Shown: in pieces, positions 4,966 to 37,807 of the stretch
How the letters are laid out: every line of letters begins with the position of its first letter
Position numbering within the stretch: the first letter of the stretch is position 1
Virus record (IMG/VR): IMGVR_UViG_2728369554_000009
Location: 1-40,186 of that record
DNA length: 40,186 nucleotides
Source: a virus
Lineage: Duplodnaviria > Heunggongvirae > Uroviricota > Caudoviricetes
Direction: 5' to 3' (one strand)
Notes under the pieces: model-generated
Seen by the model: only the letters and a program-made list of their open reading frames with translations
Databases searched by the model: none
Told to the model about the DNA's origin: nothing
Made by a program: the position numbers and the translations under genes

Positions 4966-5042
4966 TTACCGTTGAGGTAATGATTATGCGTATCTGGTTT
5001 GATGTCAATAGATATGAGTTAAAAAAATTACCCATAAGGTAA
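4966..5042. promoter_or_regulatory. Leftward early control region with two TTACC-N5-GGTAA operators (4966-4980 and 5028-5042)
   Basis: Perfect palindromes ttaccgttgaggtaa and ttacccataaggtaa lie just upstream of the leftward operon. Confidence 0.6.
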
Positions 5043-9563: not shown

Positions 9564-9847
9564 TGGACTCCTTCGCGAAATATACGATTATTGACTGGAT
9601 AGCATTCCTTCAGGTTTTGCTCATCTGGTTTTATATGGCTTACAGGAGTGGACAGTGGATTGTCAGTGTAGCCTGTAGCAAGGGATGGCGTTGGTGGAAC
9701 CGAAAGAATAAAAAAGCACTGGCCTTGGATTCGTTTTACGAAGCATTCAATCTTAACAGTCTTCAGCCTGGTTCTGTCGTTGTAGTCACCACTCAAAGCG
9801 GAATGACGATACAAATTCACAAGCCAAAGGAGGAAGGTCGTGGCTAA
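9563..9847 (+). CDS. Small membrane protein (94 aa)
   Basis: The ATG lies 6 nt after GGAGGTG. Hydrophobic segment: IIDWIAFLQVLLIWFYMAY. Confidence 0.5.
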   Translation: MDSFAKYTIIDWIAFLQVLLIWFYMAYRSGQWIVSVACSKGWRWWNRKNKKALALDSFYEAFNLNSLQPGSVVVVTTQSGMTIQIHKPKEEGRG

Positions 9848-10121
9848 CCTGCAACTTGCCGTAAAAGGTGAATACTTCAATGCCATGATTCGCGGAGAGA
9901 AAACGGAAGAGTATCGCTTGTGTAATGACTACTGGAAAAAGCGAATTATGTTCCGGGAGTATGACCGCCTGATTATCACAAGGGGATATCCGAAGCGCGA
10001 CGACTTCAGTCGCAGAATTGACGTCCCGTATGAAGGGTATGAAATCAAGACAATCACACATCCGCACTTCGGCGATAAACCGGTAAAGGTGTTCGCGATA
10101 AAGGTAAATATTGATGGCTAA
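9840..10121 (+). CDS. ASCH-like domain protein
   Basis: GTG start after AAGGAGGAAGG. LAVKGEYFNAMIRGEKTEEYRL...RLIITRGY resembles ASCH/DUF3850. Confidence 0.55.
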   Translation: MANLQLAVKGEYFNAMIRGEKTEEYRLCNDYWKKRIMFREYDRLIITRGYPKRDDFSRRIDVPYEGYEIKTITHPHFGDKPVKVFAIKVNIDG

Positions 10122-10452
10122 ATCAGCAGCAGAGCGCAAAGCCGCTCAGAGAGCCAGACAAGCTGCATCTGGTGTGCGTAAGCTGGAGATTGTGCTTGAT
10201 GCTCAGGAAATTGAAATGCTTGAGCGGAACTGCGCCGCCCGGCGCCCTGGTCGCGATCCCTATGAAATGGCCGAGTACATCGCGCTGCTGATCCGCCAGG
10301 ATGATGCACGTGTGCGCGGGCGTATAAAATCGATCAGCAGAAAACTTTGCGGTAAGTGCGGCGAGAGAGTTCCCGTTAATTCATGCCCGTGTAATGGTGA
10401 CTCGCAATGCTGGGTGACTAAAGGCTGGCATGAAACGAAATTAATAGTGTGA
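10114..10452 (+). CDS. Cys-rich basic protein and possible late regulator. It is the last gene before the terminator and terminase genes.
   Basis: 112 aa. Cysteine cluster: CGKCGERVPVNSCPCNGDSQC. The function is inferred from position only. Confidence 0.45.
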   Translation: MAKSAAERKAAQRARQAASGVRKLEIVLDAQEIEMLERNCAARRPGRDPYEMAEYIALLIRQDDARVRGRIKSISRKLCGKCGERVPVNSCPCNGDSQCWVTKGWHETKLIV

Positions 10453-10460
10453 CATGTCAC
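10449..10460. repeat. 12-bp palindrome GTGACATGTCAC, copy 1
   Basis: Exact sequence. It overlaps the stop of the 10114-10452 gene. Confidence 0.8.
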
Positions 10461-10501
10461 GAGTAGATTATGCATGATGAATTTGATGGGTTTTGAATAC
10501 T

Positions 10502-10527
10502 GCCGCCAACTATGGCGGCTTTATTTT
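10502..10527 (+). terminator. Intrinsic terminator between the early-right genes and the terminase genes
   Basis: Hairpin gccgcca-acta-tggcggc followed by tttatttt. Confidence 0.75.
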
Positions 10528-12689: not shown

Positions 12690-12713
12690 AGCCAGCTCAT
12701 AGGCTGGCTGTTT
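12690..12713. terminator. Bidirectional terminator between terL and the reverse-strand cassette
   Basis: Hairpin agccagc-tcatag-gctggct, flanked by aaaacaaa on one side and gttt on the other. Confidence 0.65.
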
Positions 12714-12725
12714 GTGACATGTCAC
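12714..12725. repeat. 12-bp palindrome GTGACATGTCAC, copy 2
   Basis: Exact sequence directly abutting the terminator. Confidence 0.8.
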
Positions 12726-12729
12726 GGTG

Positions 12730-13062
12730 TTATTTCGGTAGATTGTGTTTGGCATTCGACTCGTCTATCACGTAACGCATTGCAGTTCGACCGAGATTAC
12801 CAGGATCTTCATGCAGACTCACTCGTGCCTTTAGGAGCACACATTCAGCCTTGACATAGTTTGCTGGAATTATTCCTACCTCGGCATTTTTAAATGCCTC
12901 CTTCACCGCCTCACCGTTGTACTGACCGCCAAGCAACTCTGTACATGTCAGGTTGTTATGGATAATTGCAAGGAGATCTTTAATCTCTTCACGCAGGTTT
13001 ACAATCGCCATCGCGGCATTGATAGCTGCGGCATAGCGCTCAGCTGCAGTCTTCTCTTTCAT
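12730..13062 (-). CDS. Orphan hypothetical protein (110 aa) opposing the late operon
   Basis: The start MKEKTAAERY lies behind AAGGTGA. The 142-aa extension would run through a terminator hairpin. No family recognised. Confidence 0.55.
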   Translation of the reverse strand: MKEKTAAERYAAAINAAMAIVNLREEIKDLLAIIHNNLTCTELLGGQYNGEAVKEAFKNAEVGIIPANYVKAECVLLKARVSLHEDPGNLGRTAMRYVIDESNAKHNLPK

Positions 13063-13073
13063 GATTTTCACCT

Positions 13074-13099
13074 TAAAAAAATGCCCGGACGAACCGGGC
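13074..13099 (-). terminator. Intrinsic terminator 12 nt upstream of the Shine-Dalgarno of the 110-aa gene
   Basis: Minus-strand gcccgg-ttcgt-ccgggc followed by attttttt. Confidence 0.7.
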
Positions 13100-13141
13100 G
13101 AATGATCAACGGAGTGCCTTCCTTGGCGGGTGATGCAGGGT

Positions 13142-13357
13142 TTACAGCGCAACGTCATCGGAATGGCGTTCTGCTGTAAAAAGGGCGGTGGTCAGAAGAA
13201 GGAGAACTGCCACCGCCAAAGCTACACGCATTGCCTGGTACTGCCGTATCACGGTCCTAACGTGATTGGGTTGTGGTGGCCGGTGCTGATCTCCGGCTTG
13301 AAATATGCTCAGTGTTAGCTGCCACTCTCTCAAGAGGATATGCGTCATGATTTTCAC
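13142..13357 (-). CDS. Possible small membrane peptide. It is 71 aa from the GTG, or 29 aa (MRVALAVAVLLLLTTALFTAERHSDDVAL) from the internal ATG.
   Basis: It has a hydrophobic C-terminal helix and its own downstream terminator. The ribosome-binding sites are weak. Confidence 0.3.
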   Translation of the reverse strand: MKIMTHILLREWQLTLSIFQAGDQHRPPQPNHVRTVIRQYQAMRVALAVAVLLLLTTALFTAERHSDDVAL

Positions 13358-13386
13358 TGAGTTTGTTGGGTAACCCTGACTTCCGG

Positions 13387-13740
13387 CTATTCACGCAGCT
13401 TGTCTTCCAACTCAGGCTTATGCCTTACCCATTCCCCCACGTTCACGGGGTGCGCATCAGCCTGCGCATTCACCACAACGGAAAGAGCACTGACTTCGAG
13501 CAGACCTTGGGCCCAGGAACGACGATCAATCTCAATGCTCTTACCTGTTGCATCCTCGTCTCTTCCGAGGTGTCACACCTGATCGCCGGGATGGTGAATC
13601 CCCGTGCGCGGAATAAAACCGCTCGACTTGCACATTCCGGCTACCTGGTTCGTTTGCCCGAGCAAGGGAGGGTGCCCCTTAAACGTATCCAGACCGCTAT
13701 CGGCGCATGTGCCATACGCCGTACTGCTCAAAATAAAAGC
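13387..13740 (-). pseudogene. Decayed reading frame with an in-frame TGA (13573-13575) and no convincing start
   Basis: The minus-strand translation ..GFIPRTGIHHPGDQV*HLGRDEDATGKSIEIDRRSWAQGLLEVSALSVVVNAQADAHPVNVGEWVRHKPELEDKLRE* looks protein-like but is interrupted. Confidence 0.3.
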
Positions 13741-13803
13741 TCACTCCACCTGTTCAATTTAACGACAAGCCAGTCAGGTTAGTAACCGGAATGAACTCTT
13801 TGG

Positions 13804-30290: not shown

Positions 30291-30983
30291 ATGAATACCA
30301 AACCTTCCATCTTTTCCTTTGAGTCATCCTGCCAGATCCGTATGTTCATGATTGACGGAGAACCTTGGTTTGTCACCAAAGATGTGTGCAATGCTTTGAA
30401 TATTGATGTTACACAAGCGAGAAAACTTGATAAAAAAGGCTGGAACAAAAAGGGGCTGTATTCAATACAGACCCCTGGTGGAATACAAGAACTATCCATC
30501 GTTTCAGAATCAGGTCTCTACATCCTTATTCTGCGTTGCAAAGAGGCAATGACTGAGGGAACGAGAGCATTCAGATTTCTTGAATGGGTTACAGGTGAGG
30601 TTCTTCCTCAGATCCGCCGCACCGGAAGTTACATTAAAAACTCGCTCCCGCAGGAAGAACGCATAAAGATGGTTGCCGACCAGGTAGCCAACGCCACGGC
30701 GTCAGCAGTAATGCAGGCGATGAAGATAGAGAACAAAACCTACAGTGCCCCGCTGAAGCCCGGCTACCGCAGCCTGATTCATTCTCCGTCTGGTGTTCTC
30801 GGCCTGACGGAGAACTCACTGCTGATGAATCTGCTGAACCAGTTACAGGAAGACGGGCACGATGTATCGGGCGCGGCGGCGGAGCTGACCACCATGTTCT
30901 GCTACATCGTCGGTGTGAGCAAATGCCTGCGTGATATCCAGACGCACGCGGAATACATCAACGACAAGGCAGGGTTCTTCTGA
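30291..30983 (+). CDS. Antirepressor 1: Bro-N domain plus the shared C-terminal module
   Basis: The start MNTKPSIFSFE lies behind AGGTGA. QIRMFMIDGEPWFVTKDVCNALNI is Bro-N-like. The last ~81 aa are nearly identical to those of the 32255-32911 product. Confidence 0.75.
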   Translation: MNTKPSIFSFESSCQIRMFMIDGEPWFVTKDVCNALNIDVTQARKLDKKGWNKKGLYSIQTPGGIQELSIVSESGLYILILRCKEAMTEGTRAFRFLEWVTGEVLPQIRRTGSYIKNSLPQEERIKMVADQVANATASAVMQAMKIENKTYSAPLKPGYRSLIHSPSGVLGLTENSLLMNLLNQLQEDGHDVSGAAAELTTMFCYIVGVSKCLRDIQTHAEYINDKAGFF

Positions 30984-31008
30984 CAGAACGGCGGCACAGG
31001 GACGTGCA
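30741..31008 (+). repeat. Inner inverted repeat, arm A (antirepressor C-terminal module plus about 25 nt of 3-prime UTR)
   Basis: About 8 mismatches over about 245 coding nt against the reverse complement of 32230-32497, from manual alignment. Confidence 0.85.
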
Positions 31009-31021
31009 AAACGAAACTAGC

Positions 31022-31033
31022 GTGACATGTCAC
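31022..31033. repeat. 12-bp palindrome GTGACATGTCAC, copy 3
   Basis: Exact sequence directly abutting the terminator at 31034-31058. Confidence 0.8.
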
Positions 31034-31058
31034 AGGCCGCTTTCGCGGCCTTGTTTTT
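31034..31058 (+). terminator. Intrinsic terminator after antirepressor 1
   Basis: Hairpin aggccgc-tttc-gcggcct followed by tgttttt. Confidence 0.75.
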
Positions 31059-31218
31059 AACGAATGCCACCGCCACCCGGGCGGGAATCCGCAGAACGCC
31101 CACCGCAGCGGGAGCCGTCAGCAGCAGTGTCGCTGTCGTGCTGACAACGACCGGCAAAGGCCTGAGTTGAAGCTACCAGAGACAACAAAACGAACAGTGC
31201 AGCAAATGCTTTTTTCAT
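31057..31218 (-). CDS. Small secreted peptide (53 aa) with an Excalibur-like D-x-D...DG-x-x-C segment
   Basis: The signal peptide MKKAFAALFVLLSLVASTQAFA is followed by GRCQHDSDTAADGSRCGG. A candidate promoter of its own has TTGACG, a 16-17-nt spacer and TATAGA. It is GC-rich, unlike its neighbours. Confidence 0.45.
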   Translation of the reverse strand: MKKAFAALFVLLSLVASTQAFAGRCQHDSDTAADGSRCGGRSADSRPGGGGIR

Positions 31219-31299
31219 TGTGAAATTTCCATCTATAAACCACCTCAATGTGGCGTCAATGAGTGTAGCACTGACTTTTGTTTCGTCCATAAAAAACTA

Positions 31300-31812
31300 C
31301 TATGCAGGCTTTTTGGATTTGTACGAATAATCCCACGGATAAACATTTCTACTAAGTGGAGCTGTATTCGTTCGTTCATGAAATAATTTTGTGAAATTCA
31401 ATACGGAATCCATCCAAACTTTTGCGTTAGCTTTGGTGTGTGCGGGCGGGTCCCAATAAGCTAGTAAGGCTGCATCTCTTATTTCATTGACTGCATATAT
31501 GAGATATGCGTTACTGGTTGGTTTTGGCCTGTAATTTCCTTGTTCATCAATCAATCCATATGACCACTCATCCCAACACTGTTCAGTACATGAGTATGAA
31601 TATGATGCATATTCACCAATATTGACATGAACCTTTCTGAGATGGAAGCCTAATACTTCCTCTGGTCTTTCAAAAAGAGTATCTTTTCCCAGATCAGGAT
31701 GATGACCATGACGCCAGTGTTGTTTAAAAGCATCTTTTAGCGAAATCAGAAAGTCATCAGTTTTAAACTCACCAGTAGGTATAACCTTCCCGCTATACTC
31801 ACTCAAAAACAT
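31300..31812 (-). CDS. YafO-like toxin-family protein (170 aa)
   Basis: LKDAFKQHWRHGHHPDLGKDTLFERPEEVLGFHLRKVHVNIGE and NAYLIYAVNEIRDAALLAYWDPPAH parallel YafO segments (..PDIFGRDALYDD..VAHIHLAN.. and ..AHLVYCQG..AWLLIAIL.PEPH), which I am recalling from memory. AT-rich DNA. Confidence 0.5.
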   Translation of the reverse strand: MFLSEYSGKVIPTGEFKTDDFLISLKDAFKQHWRHGHHPDLGKDTLFERPEEVLGFHLRKVHVNIGEYASYSYSCTEQCWDEWSYGLIDEQGNYRPKPTSNAYLIYAVNEIRDAALLAYWDPPAHTKANAKVWMDSVLNFTKLFHERTNTAPLSRNVYPWDYSYKSKKPA

Positions 31813-32125
31813 CGAATTCCTCTTCCTTCATATGCGTTTCTAATGAGTTAAGCTGGCGGAAAGATATCTCTTTTGATTCTGCAGATGAGAGCTTTTTTAT
31901 CCGCTTTATATTCTTTGTGATAGGAATAGACATTGTATGCACATCAGCGGATGCTCTTGGCTTTGTGCTGATAAAAATATGGCGCAATGCCGCATTTTCA
32001 CTATTGAACGAGCCAATAGCTGATTTACGTGCTACAACCTTACCAGTAAAAATACGACTCTTGCTACGCTTTGCATGAGTTCCGCTTCTTACCGGACCTC
32101 TCATCACGAATCCAAGTTTTGTCAT
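31799..32125 (-). CDS. Upstream partner of the YafO-like gene (108 aa, basic N-terminus, acidic tail EEEFDVFE). Putative antitoxin of an unrecognised family.
   Basis: It overlaps the downstream gene by 14 nt. A promoter with a perfect operator lies 43 bp upstream. Confidence 0.5.
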   Translation of the reverse strand: MTKLGFVMRGPVRSGTHAKRSKSRIFTGKVVARKSAIGSFNSENAALRHIFISTKPRASADVHTMSIPITKNIKRIKKLSSAESKEISFRQLNSLETHMKEEEFDVFE

Positions 32126-32167
32126 CTTTAATCTCCGGTAAGTTACAGGTATAAAATAAAAACAGGT

Positions 32168-32182
32168 TTACCTTTAAGGTAA
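32168..32182. promoter_or_regulatory. Perfect operator upstream of the two-gene operon
   Basis: ttacctttaaggtaa. Confidence 0.55.
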
Positions 32183-32229
32183 TAGTACGCTATTCACCCC
32201 CGGTCTGCAATCTGTACAGAATTATTTAA

Positions 32230-32497
32230 AGGCACATCCCTGTGCCACCGCCCGTCAGAAGAACCCTGCCTTGTCGTTGATGTACTCCGCGTGGGTCTGG
32301 ATATCACGCAGGCATTTGCTCACACCGACGATGTAGCAGAACATGGTGGTCAGCTCCGCCGCCGCGCCCGATACGTCGTGCCCGTCGTCCTGTAACTGGT
32401 TCAGCAGATTCATCAGCAGTGAGTTCTCCGTCAGGCCGAGAACACCAGACGGCGAATGAATCAGGCTGCGGTAGCCGGGCTTCAGTGGGGCGCTGTA
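32230..32497 (-). repeat. Inner inverted repeat, arm B
   Basis: Reverse complement of 30741-31008. Confidence 0.85.
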
Positions 32498-32911
32498 TTC
32501 TTTTTTGTCTTCCAGCTTGATCGCCTCCATTATGGCGGGCATGAAGCCTGACAAGACCTTCTCCACTTTTGTTTCTTGTTGTCTTAAACGTTTCTCGCAT
32601 TCAATGAAGTAGCGTCGCACCTGGCGACCTTTTTCGTTACGCTCGACCATCGCCAGCTCTTTGGCTGTATCAAGGGTGAGGTGGTACTCTTTGCGGTTGT
32701 GGCCGCCTCTACCAGATGTTTGCTTTCCCAAATTGGAAAGCAAAATATAGTCTTGATTTTCAATGAATTCGTATTCTGATATGCGATTTGTAATCCATGC
32801 TGCAAACACCTTTTTAACACCTAAAAAAGCGTGCAGATCGCGGGCATTACAAAGTAGGGCTGTTTCGTTAGATATAGTGCCGTTGAATACGGGGATGAGT
32901 TGAGCGTTCAT
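32255..32911 (-). CDS. Antirepressor 2: AntA-type N-terminal domain plus the shared C-terminal module
   Basis: [37 protein letters not shown]...[29 protein letters not shown] is the AntA/AntB pattern. Confidence 0.75.
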
Positions 32912-33681: not shown

Positions 33682-36600
33682 ATGACGGTCTCAACCGAAG
33701 TTGACCACAACGAATACACCGGTAACGGCGTTACGACATCGTTTCCGTATACTTTTCGAATTTTCAGAAAATCAGACCTGGTTGTTCAGGTGTCTGACCT
33801 GAACGGAAACGTAACAGAATTGGTTCTGGATACCGGTTATACGGTAACTGGGGCGGGCACTTATAGTGGCGGTTCTGTGGTTCTTCCGTCTCCGCTTGCT
33901 ACTGGATGGCGAATTACGATAGATCGTGTGCTTGATGTAGTGCAGGAGACAGACCTTCGCAATCAGGGAAAATTTTTCCCCGAAGTGCATGAAGATGCCT
34001 TTGACTACCTGACGATGCTGATCCAGCAATGTTTTGGGTGGTTCAGACGTGCATTGATGAAACCATCTTTGCTTGCAAAATATTACGATGCAAAGCAAAA
34101 CAAAATTTCTAACCTTGCAGATCCATCATTTGAGCAGGACGCTGTAAATAATCGCTCAATGCGTAATTATGTCGATGCTGCAATCGCCGGGGTTGTTGGT
34201 GGTTTTGGTTGGTTTATTCAGTATGGTTCTGGGGCTGTGTACCGAACGTTCCAGGATAAAATGCGTGATGCTATTAGCCCCAAAGATTTTGGAGCTGTTG
34301 GTGATGGTATAAATGACGATTCCACTGCAATAAGCGCGTGCCTTGAAGCCTCATCTCCAGGTTATAAAATTGACGGATTAGGGCTTACTTTTAAAGTATC
34401 AACTCTTCCGGATGTCAGTCGATTTAAAAATGCTCGTTTTTTATTTGAGAGAATACCGGGCCAGCCTCTTTTTTATGCTTCTGAAGATTTTATCCAGGGA
34501 GAGTTATTTAAAATTACAGATACACCGTGGTACAACGCCTGGACGCAGGATAAAACGTTTGTATATGACAATGTCATCTATGCGCCTTTTATGGCTGGAG
34601 ACCGCCATGGTGTAAATAACCTCCATGTTGCATGGGTTCGCTCAGGAGATGACGGGAAGACCTGGACAACGCCGGAATGGCTTACAGATTTACATGAAAA
34701 CTATCCCACAGTTAACTATCACTGCATGAGTATGGGGGTTGTCAGAAATCGCCTTTTTGCTGTAATTGAGACGCGGACCGTGAGCGGAAATAAACTGCAG
34801 GTTGCAGAGTTGTGGGATCGCCCAATGAGTCGCAGCCTTCGCGTTTATGGTGGTATAACGAAAGCAGCAAATCAGCAAGTCGCTTATATTCGCATTACTG
34901 ATCACGGATTATTTGCTGGTGATTTTGTCAACTTCTCAAACTCTGGTGTTACAGGTGTTACCGGGAATATGACGGTGACTACTGTTATTGATAAAAATAC
35001 TTTTACAGTTACGACGCAAAATACCCAGGATGTGGATCAGAATAACGAGGGTAGATACTGGAGTTTTGGTACATCATTTCACTCGTCACCATGGAGAAAA
35101 ACCAGTCTTGGAACTATTCCTTCTTTTGTTGACGGAAGCACTCCTGTTACTGAGATTCACAGTTTTGCGACGATTAGCGATAACAGTTTTGCTGTTGGCT
35201 ACCATAATGGTGATATTGGTCCACGCGAGCTTGGGATACTCTATTTCTCTGATGCTTTCGGTTCTCCTGGTAGCTTTATTCGCAGACGCATACCTGCAGA
35301 ATATGAGGCGAATGCATCTGAGCCATGTGTAAAATATTATGATGGCATTCTGTATCTGACGACCAGGGGGACATTAAGTACTCAACCCGGTAGTTCATTG
35401 CACAGAAGCTCTGATTTAGGTACATCATGGAATTCTCTTCGCTTCCCAAATAATGTTCATCACTCAAACCTTCCTTTTGCCAAAGTTGGCGATGAGCTGA
35501 TTATTTTTGGCAGTGAGCGCGCATTTGGTGAGTGGGAAGGAGGAGAACCTGATAACCGTTATGCAGGAAATTATCCAAGAACATTTATGACCAGAGTTAA
35601 CGTCAATGAGTGGAGTCTGGATAATGTAGAGTGGGTTAATGTTACTGATCAGATTTATCAGGGCGGAATAGTTAACTCTGCGGTTGGTGTTGGTTCAGTT
35701 TGTATCAAAGACAACTGGCTGTACTACATTTTCGGTGGGGAAGACTTTCTAAACCCATGGAGCATAGGGGATAACAACAGAAAATATCCTTATGTTCACG
35801 ATGGTCACCCGGCTGATTTATATTGTTTCAGGGTGAAAATCAAACAGGAAGAATTTGTTTCAAGGGATTTTGTCTACGGAGCCACTCCTAACAGAACGCT
35901 TCCTACTTTTATGTCGACGTCAGGCGTGAGGACGGTTCCTGTACCCGTTGATTTCACAGATGATGTTGCCGTCCAGTCACTGACTGTCCATGCAGGTACA
36001 TCAGGACAAGTTCGCGCGGAAGTCAAACTTGAGGGTAATTACGCCATTATTGCGAAGAAAGTACCGTCTGATGATGTTACCGCTCAGAGATTAATCGTTA
36101 GCGGCGGTGAAACAACGTCTTCAGCAGATGGTGCAATGATAACGTTGCATGGTTCCGGAAGCAGTACTCCACGTCGCGCGGTATATAACGCACTCGAACA
36201 TCTTTTTGAGAACGGAGATGTTAAACCTTATCTTGATAATGTAAATGCTCTTGGTGGTCCGGGAAACAGGTTCTCGACAGTTTATCTTGGCTCCAATCCT
36301 GTGGTTACCAGTGACGGAACATTAAAGACAGAGCCGGTCTCTCCTGACGAAGCATTGCTGGATGCCTGGGGTGACGTCAGGTATATCGCTTATAAATGGC
36401 TGAACGCTGTCGCTATAAAGGGGGAAGAAGGGGCGAGGATACATCATGGTGTAATCGCGCAGCAACTTCGTGATGTTCTTATTTCTCACGGACTCATGGA
36501 AGAAGAAAGCACAACATGCCGCTATGCCTTTCTTTGCTATGACGATTATCCCGCAGTATATGATGACGTCATTACTGGCCAAAGGGAAATGCCGCTGACT

Positions 36601-36801
36601 GATAATGAAGGGAGCATCATTGTTGATGAGGATGATAATCCAGTGATGGTAATGGAAGACATCATTGAGCGCGTTGAAATAACGCCAGCAGGATCTAGAT
36701 GGGGGGTCAGACCTGATCTCTTATTCTATATCGAGGCAGCATGGCAGCGCAGAGAAATGGATAAGATAAAAGAGCGGATTCAGTCTCTGGAAGAACGTTA
36801 A
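33682..36801 (+). CDS. Tailspike: conserved N-terminal particle-binding domain, Asp-box (sialidase-like) central domain, and a C-terminal intramolecular chaperone (peptidase S74-type) domain
   Basis: 1039 aa. Asp-boxes are SGDDGKTW and SSDLGTSW. The GAVGDGINDDSTAI motif is present. The C-terminal VVTSDGTLKTE...HHGVIAQQL matches the S-D-x-x-x-K autocleavage region, with Ser877 at 36310-36312. Confidence 0.85.
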   Translation: MTVSTEVDHNEYTGNGVTTSFPYTFRIFRKSDLVVQVSDLNGNVTELVLDTGYTVTGAGTYSGGSVVLPSPLATGWRITIDRVLDVVQETDLRNQGKFFPEVHEDAFDYLTMLIQQCFGWFRRALMKPSLLAKYYDAKQNKISNLADPSFEQDAVNNRSMRNYVDAAIAGVVGGFGWFIQYGSGAVYRTFQDKMRDAISPKDFGAVGDGINDDSTAISACLEASSPGYKIDGLGLTFKVSTLPDVSRFKNARFLFERIPGQPLFYASEDFIQGELFKITDTPWYNAWTQDKTFVYDNVIYAPFMAGDRHGVNNLHVAWVRSGDDGKTWTTPEWLTDLHENYPTVNYHCMSMGVVRNRLFAVIETRTVSGNKLQVAELWDRPMSRSLRVYGGITKAANQQVAYIRITDHGLFAGDFVNFSNSGVTGVTGNMTVTTVIDKNTFTVTTQNTQDVDQNNEGRYWSFGTSFHSSPWRKTSLGTIPSFVDGSTPVTEIHSFATISDNSFAVGYHNGDIGPRELGILYFSDAFGSPGSFIRRRIPAEYEANASEPCVKYYDGILYLTTRGTLSTQPGSSLHRSSDLGTSWNSLRFPNNVHHSNLPFAKVGDELIIFGSERAFGEWEGGEPDNRYAGNYPRTFMTRVNVNEWSLDNVEWVNVTDQIYQGGIVNSAVGVGSVCIKDNWLYYIFGGEDFLNPWSIGDNNRKYPYVHDGHPADLYCFRVKIKQEEFVSRDFVYGATPNRTLPTFMSTSGVRTVPVPVDFTDDVAVQSLTVHAGTSGQVRAEVKLEGNYAIIAKKVPSDDVTAQRLIVSGGETTSSADGAMITLHGSGSSTPRRAVYNALEHLFENGDVKPYLDNVNALGGPGNRFSTVYLGSNPVVTSDGTLKTEPVSPDEALLDAWGDVRYIAYKWLNAVAIKGEEGARIHHGVIAQQLRDVLISHGLMEEESTTCRYAFLCYDDYPAVYDDVITGQREMPLTDNEGSIIVDEDDNPVMVMEDIIERVEITPAGSRWGVRPDLLFYIEAAWQRREMDKIKERIQSLEER

Positions 36802-36807
36802 AAAAAA

Positions 36808-36827
36808 GCCCGCAATATTTTGCGGGT
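36808..36827 (-). terminator. Hairpin after the tailspike gene whose T-run is on the minus strand
   Basis: gcccgcaa-tatt-ttgcgggt is preceded by A7-8 on the plus strand and followed by atcaaaaa. It is therefore a canonical terminator only for leftward transcription. Confidence 0.5.
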
Positions 36828-37107
36828 ATCAAAAACGGAGTTTGTGAAAAGTTATCTTTGAATTCTATCATGAATCAGTACGTATTTTAAATACATGTTC
36901 AGGTTTATTACACCATAGCATTATTAAATACAAAATTAAGTCTATGGTTCCTGTACAACTGCCCCCACTCTGCTGGCTCGTTCTGTAAAATCATTAGTAC
37001 TTTTATTGAGATATATGATATGGAACAATAATGATTTATATATGGTTTACTATGCGGGTTTAGTCATCAATAATTGACTGGCTTATAGATAGTAAACAGG
37101 AGAAAGT

Positions 37108-37512
37108 ATGTCTGCTCAAGTAACAAGTGAGCAATTAAATCAGTTGCTTAGTTTTAGTTCTCTTGCTGCGGTTATTGCAGGTGCCCCTCCGGAGGTTGCT
37201 TTAGGGGCTTTGGCTGGGGCGGTAATTTTTGTTACCTCTGCAGTAGAGTACCCCATCCGTCGCCGGGTGCTCCTGTCGATGCTCAGCTTTCTTTGCGGCC
37301 TTCTCTTTTACAAACCAGCAGCATCAATTCTTATCGGCATAGCCAGCCTGATCCCTACCATCACGCAGGACTCTTTTGAAAAAGGGATTGTTTTCTCTGC
37401 AGGCGCATTCGTGTCAGCAATTGTCGCTGTGCGTATTGGTATATGGCTCTATCACCGTTCCGATAATCCACGCGAGTTAATTCTGGGGAGAAAAGACGAT
37501 GGTAACGCATGA
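37108..37512 (+). CDS. Holin-like multi-pass membrane protein (134 aa)
   Basis: It has three or four hydrophobic segments and is the first gene of the lysis cassette. AGGAGAAAG Shine-Dalgarno. Confidence 0.55.
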   Translation: MSAQVTSEQLNQLLSFSSLAAVIAGAPPEVALGALAGAVIFVTSAVEYPIRRRVLLSMLSFLCGLLFYKPAASILIGIASLIPTITQDSFEKGIVFSAGAFVSAIVAVRIGIWLYHRSDNPRELILGRKDDGNA

Positions 37513-37807
37513 GTTTTTTTTGCTTATCACCAATGCAGTTATTTGCACTGGCATAGCAATTCGCGTTGTCACATTCCGGCGTAACGGCTCTCAACATCGA
37601 AGGTGGGGAGGATGGCTTGCTTATTTCCTGATTGTTGCTGCGGCCAGTATTCCTGTTCGAGTCGCCTATGCAATCTGGTTACGTACGCCAATGGCTGTGG
37701 ATTTATCTGAGGTCATTATCAACGCTGTCATGCTGGCTGCGGTTATTAAAACGCGCGGTAACGTCGTTCAAATTTTTAAAGTATCGAGGTCTAAACATGG
37801 AGATTAA
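37499..37807 (+). CDS. Holin or antiholin-like membrane protein (102 aa)
   Basis: It has three hydrophobic segments and overlaps both neighbouring genes. Confidence 0.6.

Follow-up and report, generated by a model that had tools for sequence, protein, structure and literature searches.

The stretch of DNA analysed here (the window, 40,186 nt) represents a near-complete E. coli prophage of the phiV10/epsilon15-like type (Uetakevirus). The prophage carries an integrase, RecT, an HTH repressor, replication genes, the terminase and head genes, and it also encodes an immI-like Arc/Ant region, an endosialidase tailspike and lysis genes. Its minus strand harbours two small overlapping genes with the following elements.

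31300-31812, minus strand: gene of a 170-aa long-form YafO-family protein, a predicted RelE/HigB-fold endoribonuclease toxin
31799-32125, minus strand: ORF of the 108-aa partner, a predicted antitoxin
31799-31812, minus strand: 14-nt overlap of the partner stop with the toxin start, as read from the sequence
31819-31822, minus strand: GAGG, 6 nt before the toxin ATG and within the last codons of the partner
32133-32136, minus strand: GGAG Shine-Dalgarno sequence, 7 nt 5' of the partner ATG, as read directly

The initial annotation had claimed two ORFs of 170 and 108 aa sharing 14 nt, of foreign base composition and placed at the centre of a palindrome. The coordinates are exactly as claimed, the pair has a GC content of 0.396 where the window averages 0.482 (an equally low or lower value is reached in only 1.5% of 826-nt windows), and the genes are flanked by 257-nt inverted repeat arms that are 95% complementary. 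The sequence CCGGAGAT at the Shine-Dalgarno site of the partner is kept in every allele, and the indels observed among the alleles of the pair are in frame. The toxin has a dN/dS ratio of 0.07 and the partner one of 0.46 overall (0.26 in its C-terminus and 0.72 in its middle zone), values that are approximate since the synonymous sites are near saturation. The conservation, the in-frame indels and the dN/dS values rule out chance ORFs. The 108-aa protein would be made first, and the synthesis of the larger protein is likely to be translationally coupled to it through the 14-nt overlap.

Of 5,426 complete E. coli genomes, 536 match part of a 1.4-kb query, the whole region being present in only 69 of these 536. 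The 170-aa product (WP_001555163.1) is labelled 'type II toxin-antitoxin system YafO family toxin' by RefSeq/PGAP, so the YafO assignment as such is not new; the 108-aa product is listed in RefSeq as hypothetical. As to the prophage itself, RefSeq annotates the tailspike of the matching genome (window 34547-37666, plus strand) as an endosialidase catalytic beta-propeller protein, a hint that the prophage is specific for the K1 capsule; among the hosts, an avian pathogenic O2:K1:H7 strain matches best. The window differs from an otherwise collinear E. coli genome (L037) at about 12700-13800, where the counterpart carries a RefSeq 'Gp49 family protein' gene and a tRNA-Arg gene whose coordinates give no clean translation in the window. 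In the early region the coordinates of the two are offset by about 460 nt.

The YafO-like protein and its partner

The 170-aa protein matches the Pfam profile YafO_toxin (PF13957) over positions 7-100 of 101. The alignment covers nearly the full length of the profile with an E-value of 7e-4, while the score of 20.1 bits falls under the gathering threshold of 25 bits. BLASTP of the protein against YafO of E. coli K-12 gave nothing significant, NCBIfam yielded no useful match for the pair, and the PHROGs family to which the protein belongs (phrog_1651) is of unknown function. The long-form subfamily is rare (54 clusters at E <= 1e-3 when 1.84 billion representative proteins were searched with a profile), and its clusters are mostly 160-200 aa long. 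An alignment of 37 diverse full-length members revealed F29, G42, H62, W80, Y106 and H125 as invariant and a G-K/R-D motif, shared with YafO, as kept throughout; PF13957 is matched at E <= 0.01 by 22 of these 37 proteins, the best E-value being 1e-7. When the 37-sequence profile was aligned by hhalign to K-12 YafO, a probability of 93.6% and an E-value of 2e-7 were obtained over 110 columns, spanning YafO residues 11-128 of 132, and five of the six invariant residues (F29, G42, H62, Y106 and H125) proved to be identical in YafO. These comparisons show homology to YafO.

The sixth invariant residue, W80, lies in a segment absent from YafO. A ~40-aa insert had been proposed for this part of the protein; the insertion is real, while the net gain relative to K-12 YafO is only about 17-20 residues, around positions 64-98. 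The insertion with W80 is a conserved feature of the long-form subfamily. AlphaFold2 modelled the 170-aa protein with high scores (pLDDT 95, pTM 0.89), and the predicted structure has the RelE-like alpha/beta fold of the RelE/ParE (BECR-fold) superfamily. Foldseek comparison of this model with PDB and BFVD gave nothing significant, and no YafO-family structure was found when one was sought by sequence. We assign the protein, as a long form, to the YafO branch of the RelE/ParE endoribonucleases. In its free form it is predicted to cut mRNA and to halt translation, with the invariant residues H62, Y106 and H125 and the G42-K43-D44 triplet as candidates for catalysis.

The partner is a protein of quite another kind. 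Its residues 1-78 have a pI of 12.0 and a charge of +15.8 and its last 30 residues, which end in EEEFDVFE, have a pI of 4.5, just as the basic N-terminal part and acidic tail described initially would imply. It has no sequence match in Pfam, NCBIfam, PADLOC or PDB, and the Pfam, NCBIfam and PDB searches revealed no DNA-binding or antitoxin domain of the RHH, HTH, AbrB or Phd types. BLASTP against YafN was likewise empty, and we therefore agree with the early impression that the protein does not resemble Phd, YefM or YafN. It falls into PHROGs family phrog_5933, function unknown. A profile search of 5.8 billion sequences delineated a family of 23 clusters, all 100-124 aa in length, all from Enterobacterales and all labelled hypothetical; tblastn of the partner against 50,697 phage records gave no match. 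The alignment shows a conserved N-terminus (MTKLGFVMRG..KRRK), a variable middle zone with in-frame indels and a conserved C-terminus (IS..S.ELSFRMLNSLEDRMKEEEFDVFE). In an AlphaFold2 model of the partner alone, built on an alignment of 6 sequences, residues 81-107 form a helix with pLDDT of about 88; pLDDT is below 55 outside this helix, residues 1-75 being disordered. The picture that emerges from the prediction is that of a disordered, fast-evolving, basic part making up the N-terminal two thirds, followed at the C-terminus by an acidic helix (residues about 79-108) that is conserved and by which the toxin would be neutralised.

The features just listed might also be read in a different way, namely that the 170-aa product, though YafO-like, has lost its catalytic activity or been put to another use, such as that of an RNA- or ribosome-binding regulator. 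The 108-aa product would then be a small, basic, unrelated protein that binds nucleic acids, and the two would form no toxin-antitoxin pair. The Pfam score under the threshold, the subfamily-specific insertion with its invariant W80, the extra termini absent from YafO and a partner devoid of antitoxin hallmarks are all compatible with such a regulator. However, H62, Y106, H125 and the G-K/R-D motif are shared with YafO and have not varied across the 37 members, the purifying selection on the gene is strong (see the dN/dS value above), and the strict coupling to an upstream partner, by an overlap kept across the whole subfamily, is what would be expected if the downstream product needs neutralising. 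We consider the loss of the toxin function very unlikely.

Cargo slot and inheritance of the pair

The position of the pair within the prophage is defined by the following elements.

30728-30984, no strand: left inverted-repeat arm, 257 nt, the 3' end of the antirepressor gene (repeat pair I1, 95% complementary)
32254-32510, no strand: right inverted-repeat arm, 257 nt, the 3' end of the Bro-N gene (repeat pair I1)
32231-32246, minus strand: hairpin GGCACA-GGGA-TGTGCC after the Bro-N stop, followed by only three T, inside inverted-repeat pair I7
31057-31218, minus strand: 53-aa ORF with a signal-peptide-like N-terminus, downstream of the pair, annotated in RefSeq and in phage TL-2011b

The antirepressor and Bro-N genes that carry the arms are convergent. 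Their promoter regions are likewise duplicated and inverted, and more matching arms are found farther out. The hairpin is possibly a weak terminator that insulates the cassette. Among IMG/VR prophages the 1.27-kb segment between the 257-nt repeats, comprising the small ORF and the pair, is found either way round with respect to the Arc and tailspike sides (in L014 it is opposite to the window, L015 and L020). This suggests that the segment inverts by recombination between the ends of the antirepressor genes, an ambiguity of short-read assembly being possible.

The interval between the antirepressor genes (30985-32253) is a variable cargo site, as seen from comparison with loci L002, L045, L046 and L038. 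In phage TL-2011b it is occupied by another YafO-family pair, in EC.W1-9 by an unrelated DUF2335 pair and in phiv142-3 by two small ORFs; phiV10 has none of these cassettes. The 53-aa ORF (GC 0.574, with a Gly/Arg/Asp-rich tail, labelled 'putative transmembrane anchored protein' in TL-2011b) belongs to the slot and not to the cassette, since it is present in phiv142-3 and EC.W1-9 without the pair. EC.W1-9 encodes in addition a second long-form YafO relative (PP445227.1 28476-28928; loci L034-L036), 44-47% identical, whose partner is 152-171 aa long with an 11-nt overlap. This gene lies directly downstream of the DUF2335 cassette and outside the slot of the window pair, so related phages may have two YafO-type cargo sites.

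The two genes of the pair are inherited together. In all 31 loci whose toxin is at least 66% identical the 14-nt overlap is the same and the partner is always upstream; relatives at 44% identity have a longer partner and an 11-nt overlap. The partner family is distributed no more widely than the toxin subfamily, and a scan of species-representative genomes found one locus only, in Serratia aquatilis. The more distant long-form YafO relatives are preceded by basic proteins of 57-71 aa that lack a known domain and end in a short hydrophobic or acidic tail. Three unrelated contexts of the pair were encountered. In Uetakevirus-like prophages of Salmonella, Serratia and Enterobacter it is a neighbour of Bro-N or pRha genes; a second setting is an integrase/AlpA island; and in a lambdoid prophage it separates the Q antiterminator from the lysis genes. 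An identical 170-aa allele, together with the partner and the palindrome considered below, occupies positions 9685-10513 both of L039 and of L040, that is, in a Uetakevirus-like prophage at guaA and in the lambdoid prophage. This identity indicates a recent transfer. The pair moves between different prophage types as a unit of ~1 kb.

Two small co-oriented overlapping genes that are inherited together are what is expected of a type II toxin-antitoxin system, and the gene order, the fixed overlap and the co-transfer fit the cassette of this type that was originally proposed. All the computational tests that could be applied supported this interpretation. We believe that the pair is probably a mobile type II toxin-antitoxin cassette, carried as prophage cargo and equipped with an antitoxin of a new family. 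As to its biological role, it could act in exclusion or abortive infection, in prophage addiction or in the lytic cycle.

The first of these roles is compatible with the toxin-antitoxin explanation and does not compete with it. An infecting phage would stop host transcription, the labile partner would be depleted, and the freed RNase would kill or arrest the cell, so that the prophage would confer abortive infection or superinfection exclusion. The placement of the pair as AT-rich cargo in a hotspot beside antirepressor genes speaks for this, as do the presence of the other YafO-family pair in the slot of TL-2011b and the use of a classic cargo site by the lambdoid copy. The interval between Q and the lysis genes is also the site of the Shiga-toxin genes in Stx phages. 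On the other hand, neither protein of the pair matches the PADLOC-DB v2 defence models at E <= 1. Toxins of the RelE/ParE superfamily are known as defence effectors (PMC11980606), while our literature search found no paper tying YafO-family toxins to a demonstrated defence phenotype. We regard a role in exclusion as possible, if somewhat unlikely, and a further argument against it comes from the promoter region.

Palindrome, candidate promoter and possible roles

Upstream of the partner gene, a promoter-like sequence abuts a palindrome.

32168-32182, no strand: palindrome TTACC-TTTAA-GGTAA, putative operator of a phage global repressor, 57 nt 5' of the partner ATG
32182-32210, minus strand: candidate sigma-70 promoter with -35 TTGCAG (32205-32210), a 17-nt spacer and -10 TACTAT (32182-32187)

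The phage-wide TTACC-N5-GGTAA motif, said in the initial annotation to lie at this promoter, is strongly over-represented: the window contains 12 copies (4966, 5028, 5740, 8094, 8156, 10539, 13804, 29423, 30009, 32168, 33183 and 33563) and phiV10 contains 8, against 0 expected in either. A similar repeated palindrome is reportedly described in the epsilon15 genome paper. In most alleles of the pair the palindrome lies 53-57 nt 5' of the partner ATG with perfect half-sites and a variable spacer. We considered that it might be the partner's own operator; this was ruled out, as phiV10 has the 8 copies without having the pair, which implies that a core phage factor and not the partner binds the motif. 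In the lambdoid context the palindrome of the pair is the sole copy in about 20.5 kb, and since it stands beside an allele identical to the Uetakevirus-like one, it was evidently brought along in the recent transfer.

In phiV10 and in the collinear E. coli prophage, the immunity-region copies flank the HTH repressor gene at the positions expected for the leftward and rightward early operators; by correspondence, their equivalents in the window are those at 4966, 5028 and 5740. From this arrangement, the motif is probably bound by the immunity repressor or a Cro-type protein. The twelve copies look as if a single regulator had its operators throughout the genome, some of them ahead of the structural operon.

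The claim that the pair has its own promoter could be upheld only in part. A -35/-10 layout is readable, but it matches the consensus weakly (7/12) and is absent from the output of a simple promoter scan. The final T of the candidate -10 is the first base of the palindrome, and the same layout (a -35, 17 or 18 nt, and a -10 ending at the palindrome) recurs at 4966 (minus), 8156 (plus), 30009 (plus) and 33183 (minus). Transcription of the pair probably starts from this weak promoter, and the palindrome would couple its expression to a repressor or Cro-type regulator of the phage. If the palindrome is an operator of the repressor, the pair would be off in the lysogen, which is unusual for an addiction or defence module and weighs against the exclusion role outlined above.

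The pair might alternatively serve a repressor-gated function of the lytic cycle and not be a toxin-antitoxin system expressed in the lysogen. It would be silent in the prophage, owing to the immunity repressor bound at the promoter palindrome, and transcribed on induction or infection only; the RNase would then degrade host mRNA to shut off the host, and the partner would serve as a timing inhibitor or a chaperone. The abutment of the palindrome and the candidate -10, the recurrence of this layout at antirepressor and early-region promoters and the operator-like placing of the motif around the HTH repressor gene, here and in phiV10, agree with this. Yet the slot holds unrelated cassettes or nothing in other phages, so lytic growth does not depend on the pair; a lambdoid prophage in which 20 kb contain no further copy of the motif carries the identical allele as cargo; and both the binder of the motif and the direction of regulation are putative. 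A lytic function in this sense seems to us unlikely.

Returning to the cassette reading that we prefer, it also has a bolder form, to which we assign an equally low probability. The toxin-antitoxin promoter would be wired to the immunity operator of the prophage and transcribed only when repressor occupancy is lost. Were this correct, the triggers would be induction, superinfection by a heteroimmune relative carrying an antirepressor, or loss of the repressor, and the YafO-like RNase would be a repressor-gated switch serving for host shut-off or as a dead-man's switch and not a constitutive module for addiction or defence. The partner, basic and disordered, would then represent a new class of antitoxin, able to do without a DNA-binding domain since its regulation is left to the phage.

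YafO is among the least understood toxins of the RelE superfamily. The pair described here defines a rare long-form subfamily characterised by the tryptophan-bearing insertion and by small, disordered, domain-less partners. What is new is the family of the partner, the insertion of the long form and the link to an operator found throughout the phage. The pair raises the questions of how a YafO-type RNase is neutralised without a Phd/YefM antitoxin, whether a toxin-antitoxin promoter can come under the control of a phage repressor, and what this cargo hotspot contributes to its lysogens, avian and extraintestinal pathogenic E. coli among them. We do not claim a new principle, as a prophage toxin-antitoxin pair with a swapped antitoxin is a familiar theme.

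Comparison with known systems

YafO (PF13957) is counted among the 13 BECR-fold families of the RelE/ParE superfamily; it has about 1,000 members in Pfam and its systems follow the antitoxin-then-toxin order (PMC11980606). The ribosome dependence of YafO has been questioned (bioRxiv 10.1101/2021.07.08.451724; PMC11980606). Our search of the literature found no study of the present pair, of its subfamily or of prophage YafO-like toxins.

Within the same superfamily, HigB2 of Vibrio cholerae (5mje) and HigB1 of M. tuberculosis (7nbu) are ribosome-dependent mRNA endonucleases. Their identity to the 170-aa protein is 11-14%, with no sequence-level match and no significance in Foldseek. The HigBA systems also differ in having the toxin-then-antitoxin order and HTH antitoxins (PMC11980606).

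The gp45-gp44 pair of TL-2011b (YP_007001996 and YP_007001995) is much closer and occupies the same slot in a related phage. Its gp44, a long-form YafO-family protein of 181 aa, shares 33% identity with that of the window (E 1e-27) and passes the Pfam threshold at 26.3 bits. It is likewise preceded by a small basic overlapping gene with a TTACC-N5-GGTAA copy just 5' of it; that upstream partner, however, has only 59 aa and no detectable similarity to the 108-aa partner.

The classical counterpart is YafN-YafO of E. coli K-12. YafO residues F25, G39, H62, Y90 and H111 are identical to the window toxin at the aligned positions, and in yafNO too the antitoxin gene comes first and the toxin gene second (PMC11980606). 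The tail of YafN (...DDDFNDFKE) and that of our partner are both acidic and aromatic-rich. In hhalign, the partner and YafN align only by their tails, end to end, with an E-value of 0.065, and the tail of the partner aligns with that of a distant partner with an E-value of 0.013. Composition-preserving shuffle tests of such tail matches gave p of 0.055-0.25 (0.055 for the YafN tail); this is not significant, so we dropped the idea of homology and speak of a resemblance only. YafO of K-12 has 132 aa against 170 aa in the window toxin, which bears the insertion and longer termini. Unlike YafN, the window partner is not of the Phd/YefM type and is predicted to be disordered apart from a single helix. 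Finally, yafNO resides in the dinB operon, an SOS operon, whereas the pair of the window is a prophage cargo furnished with a phage operator.
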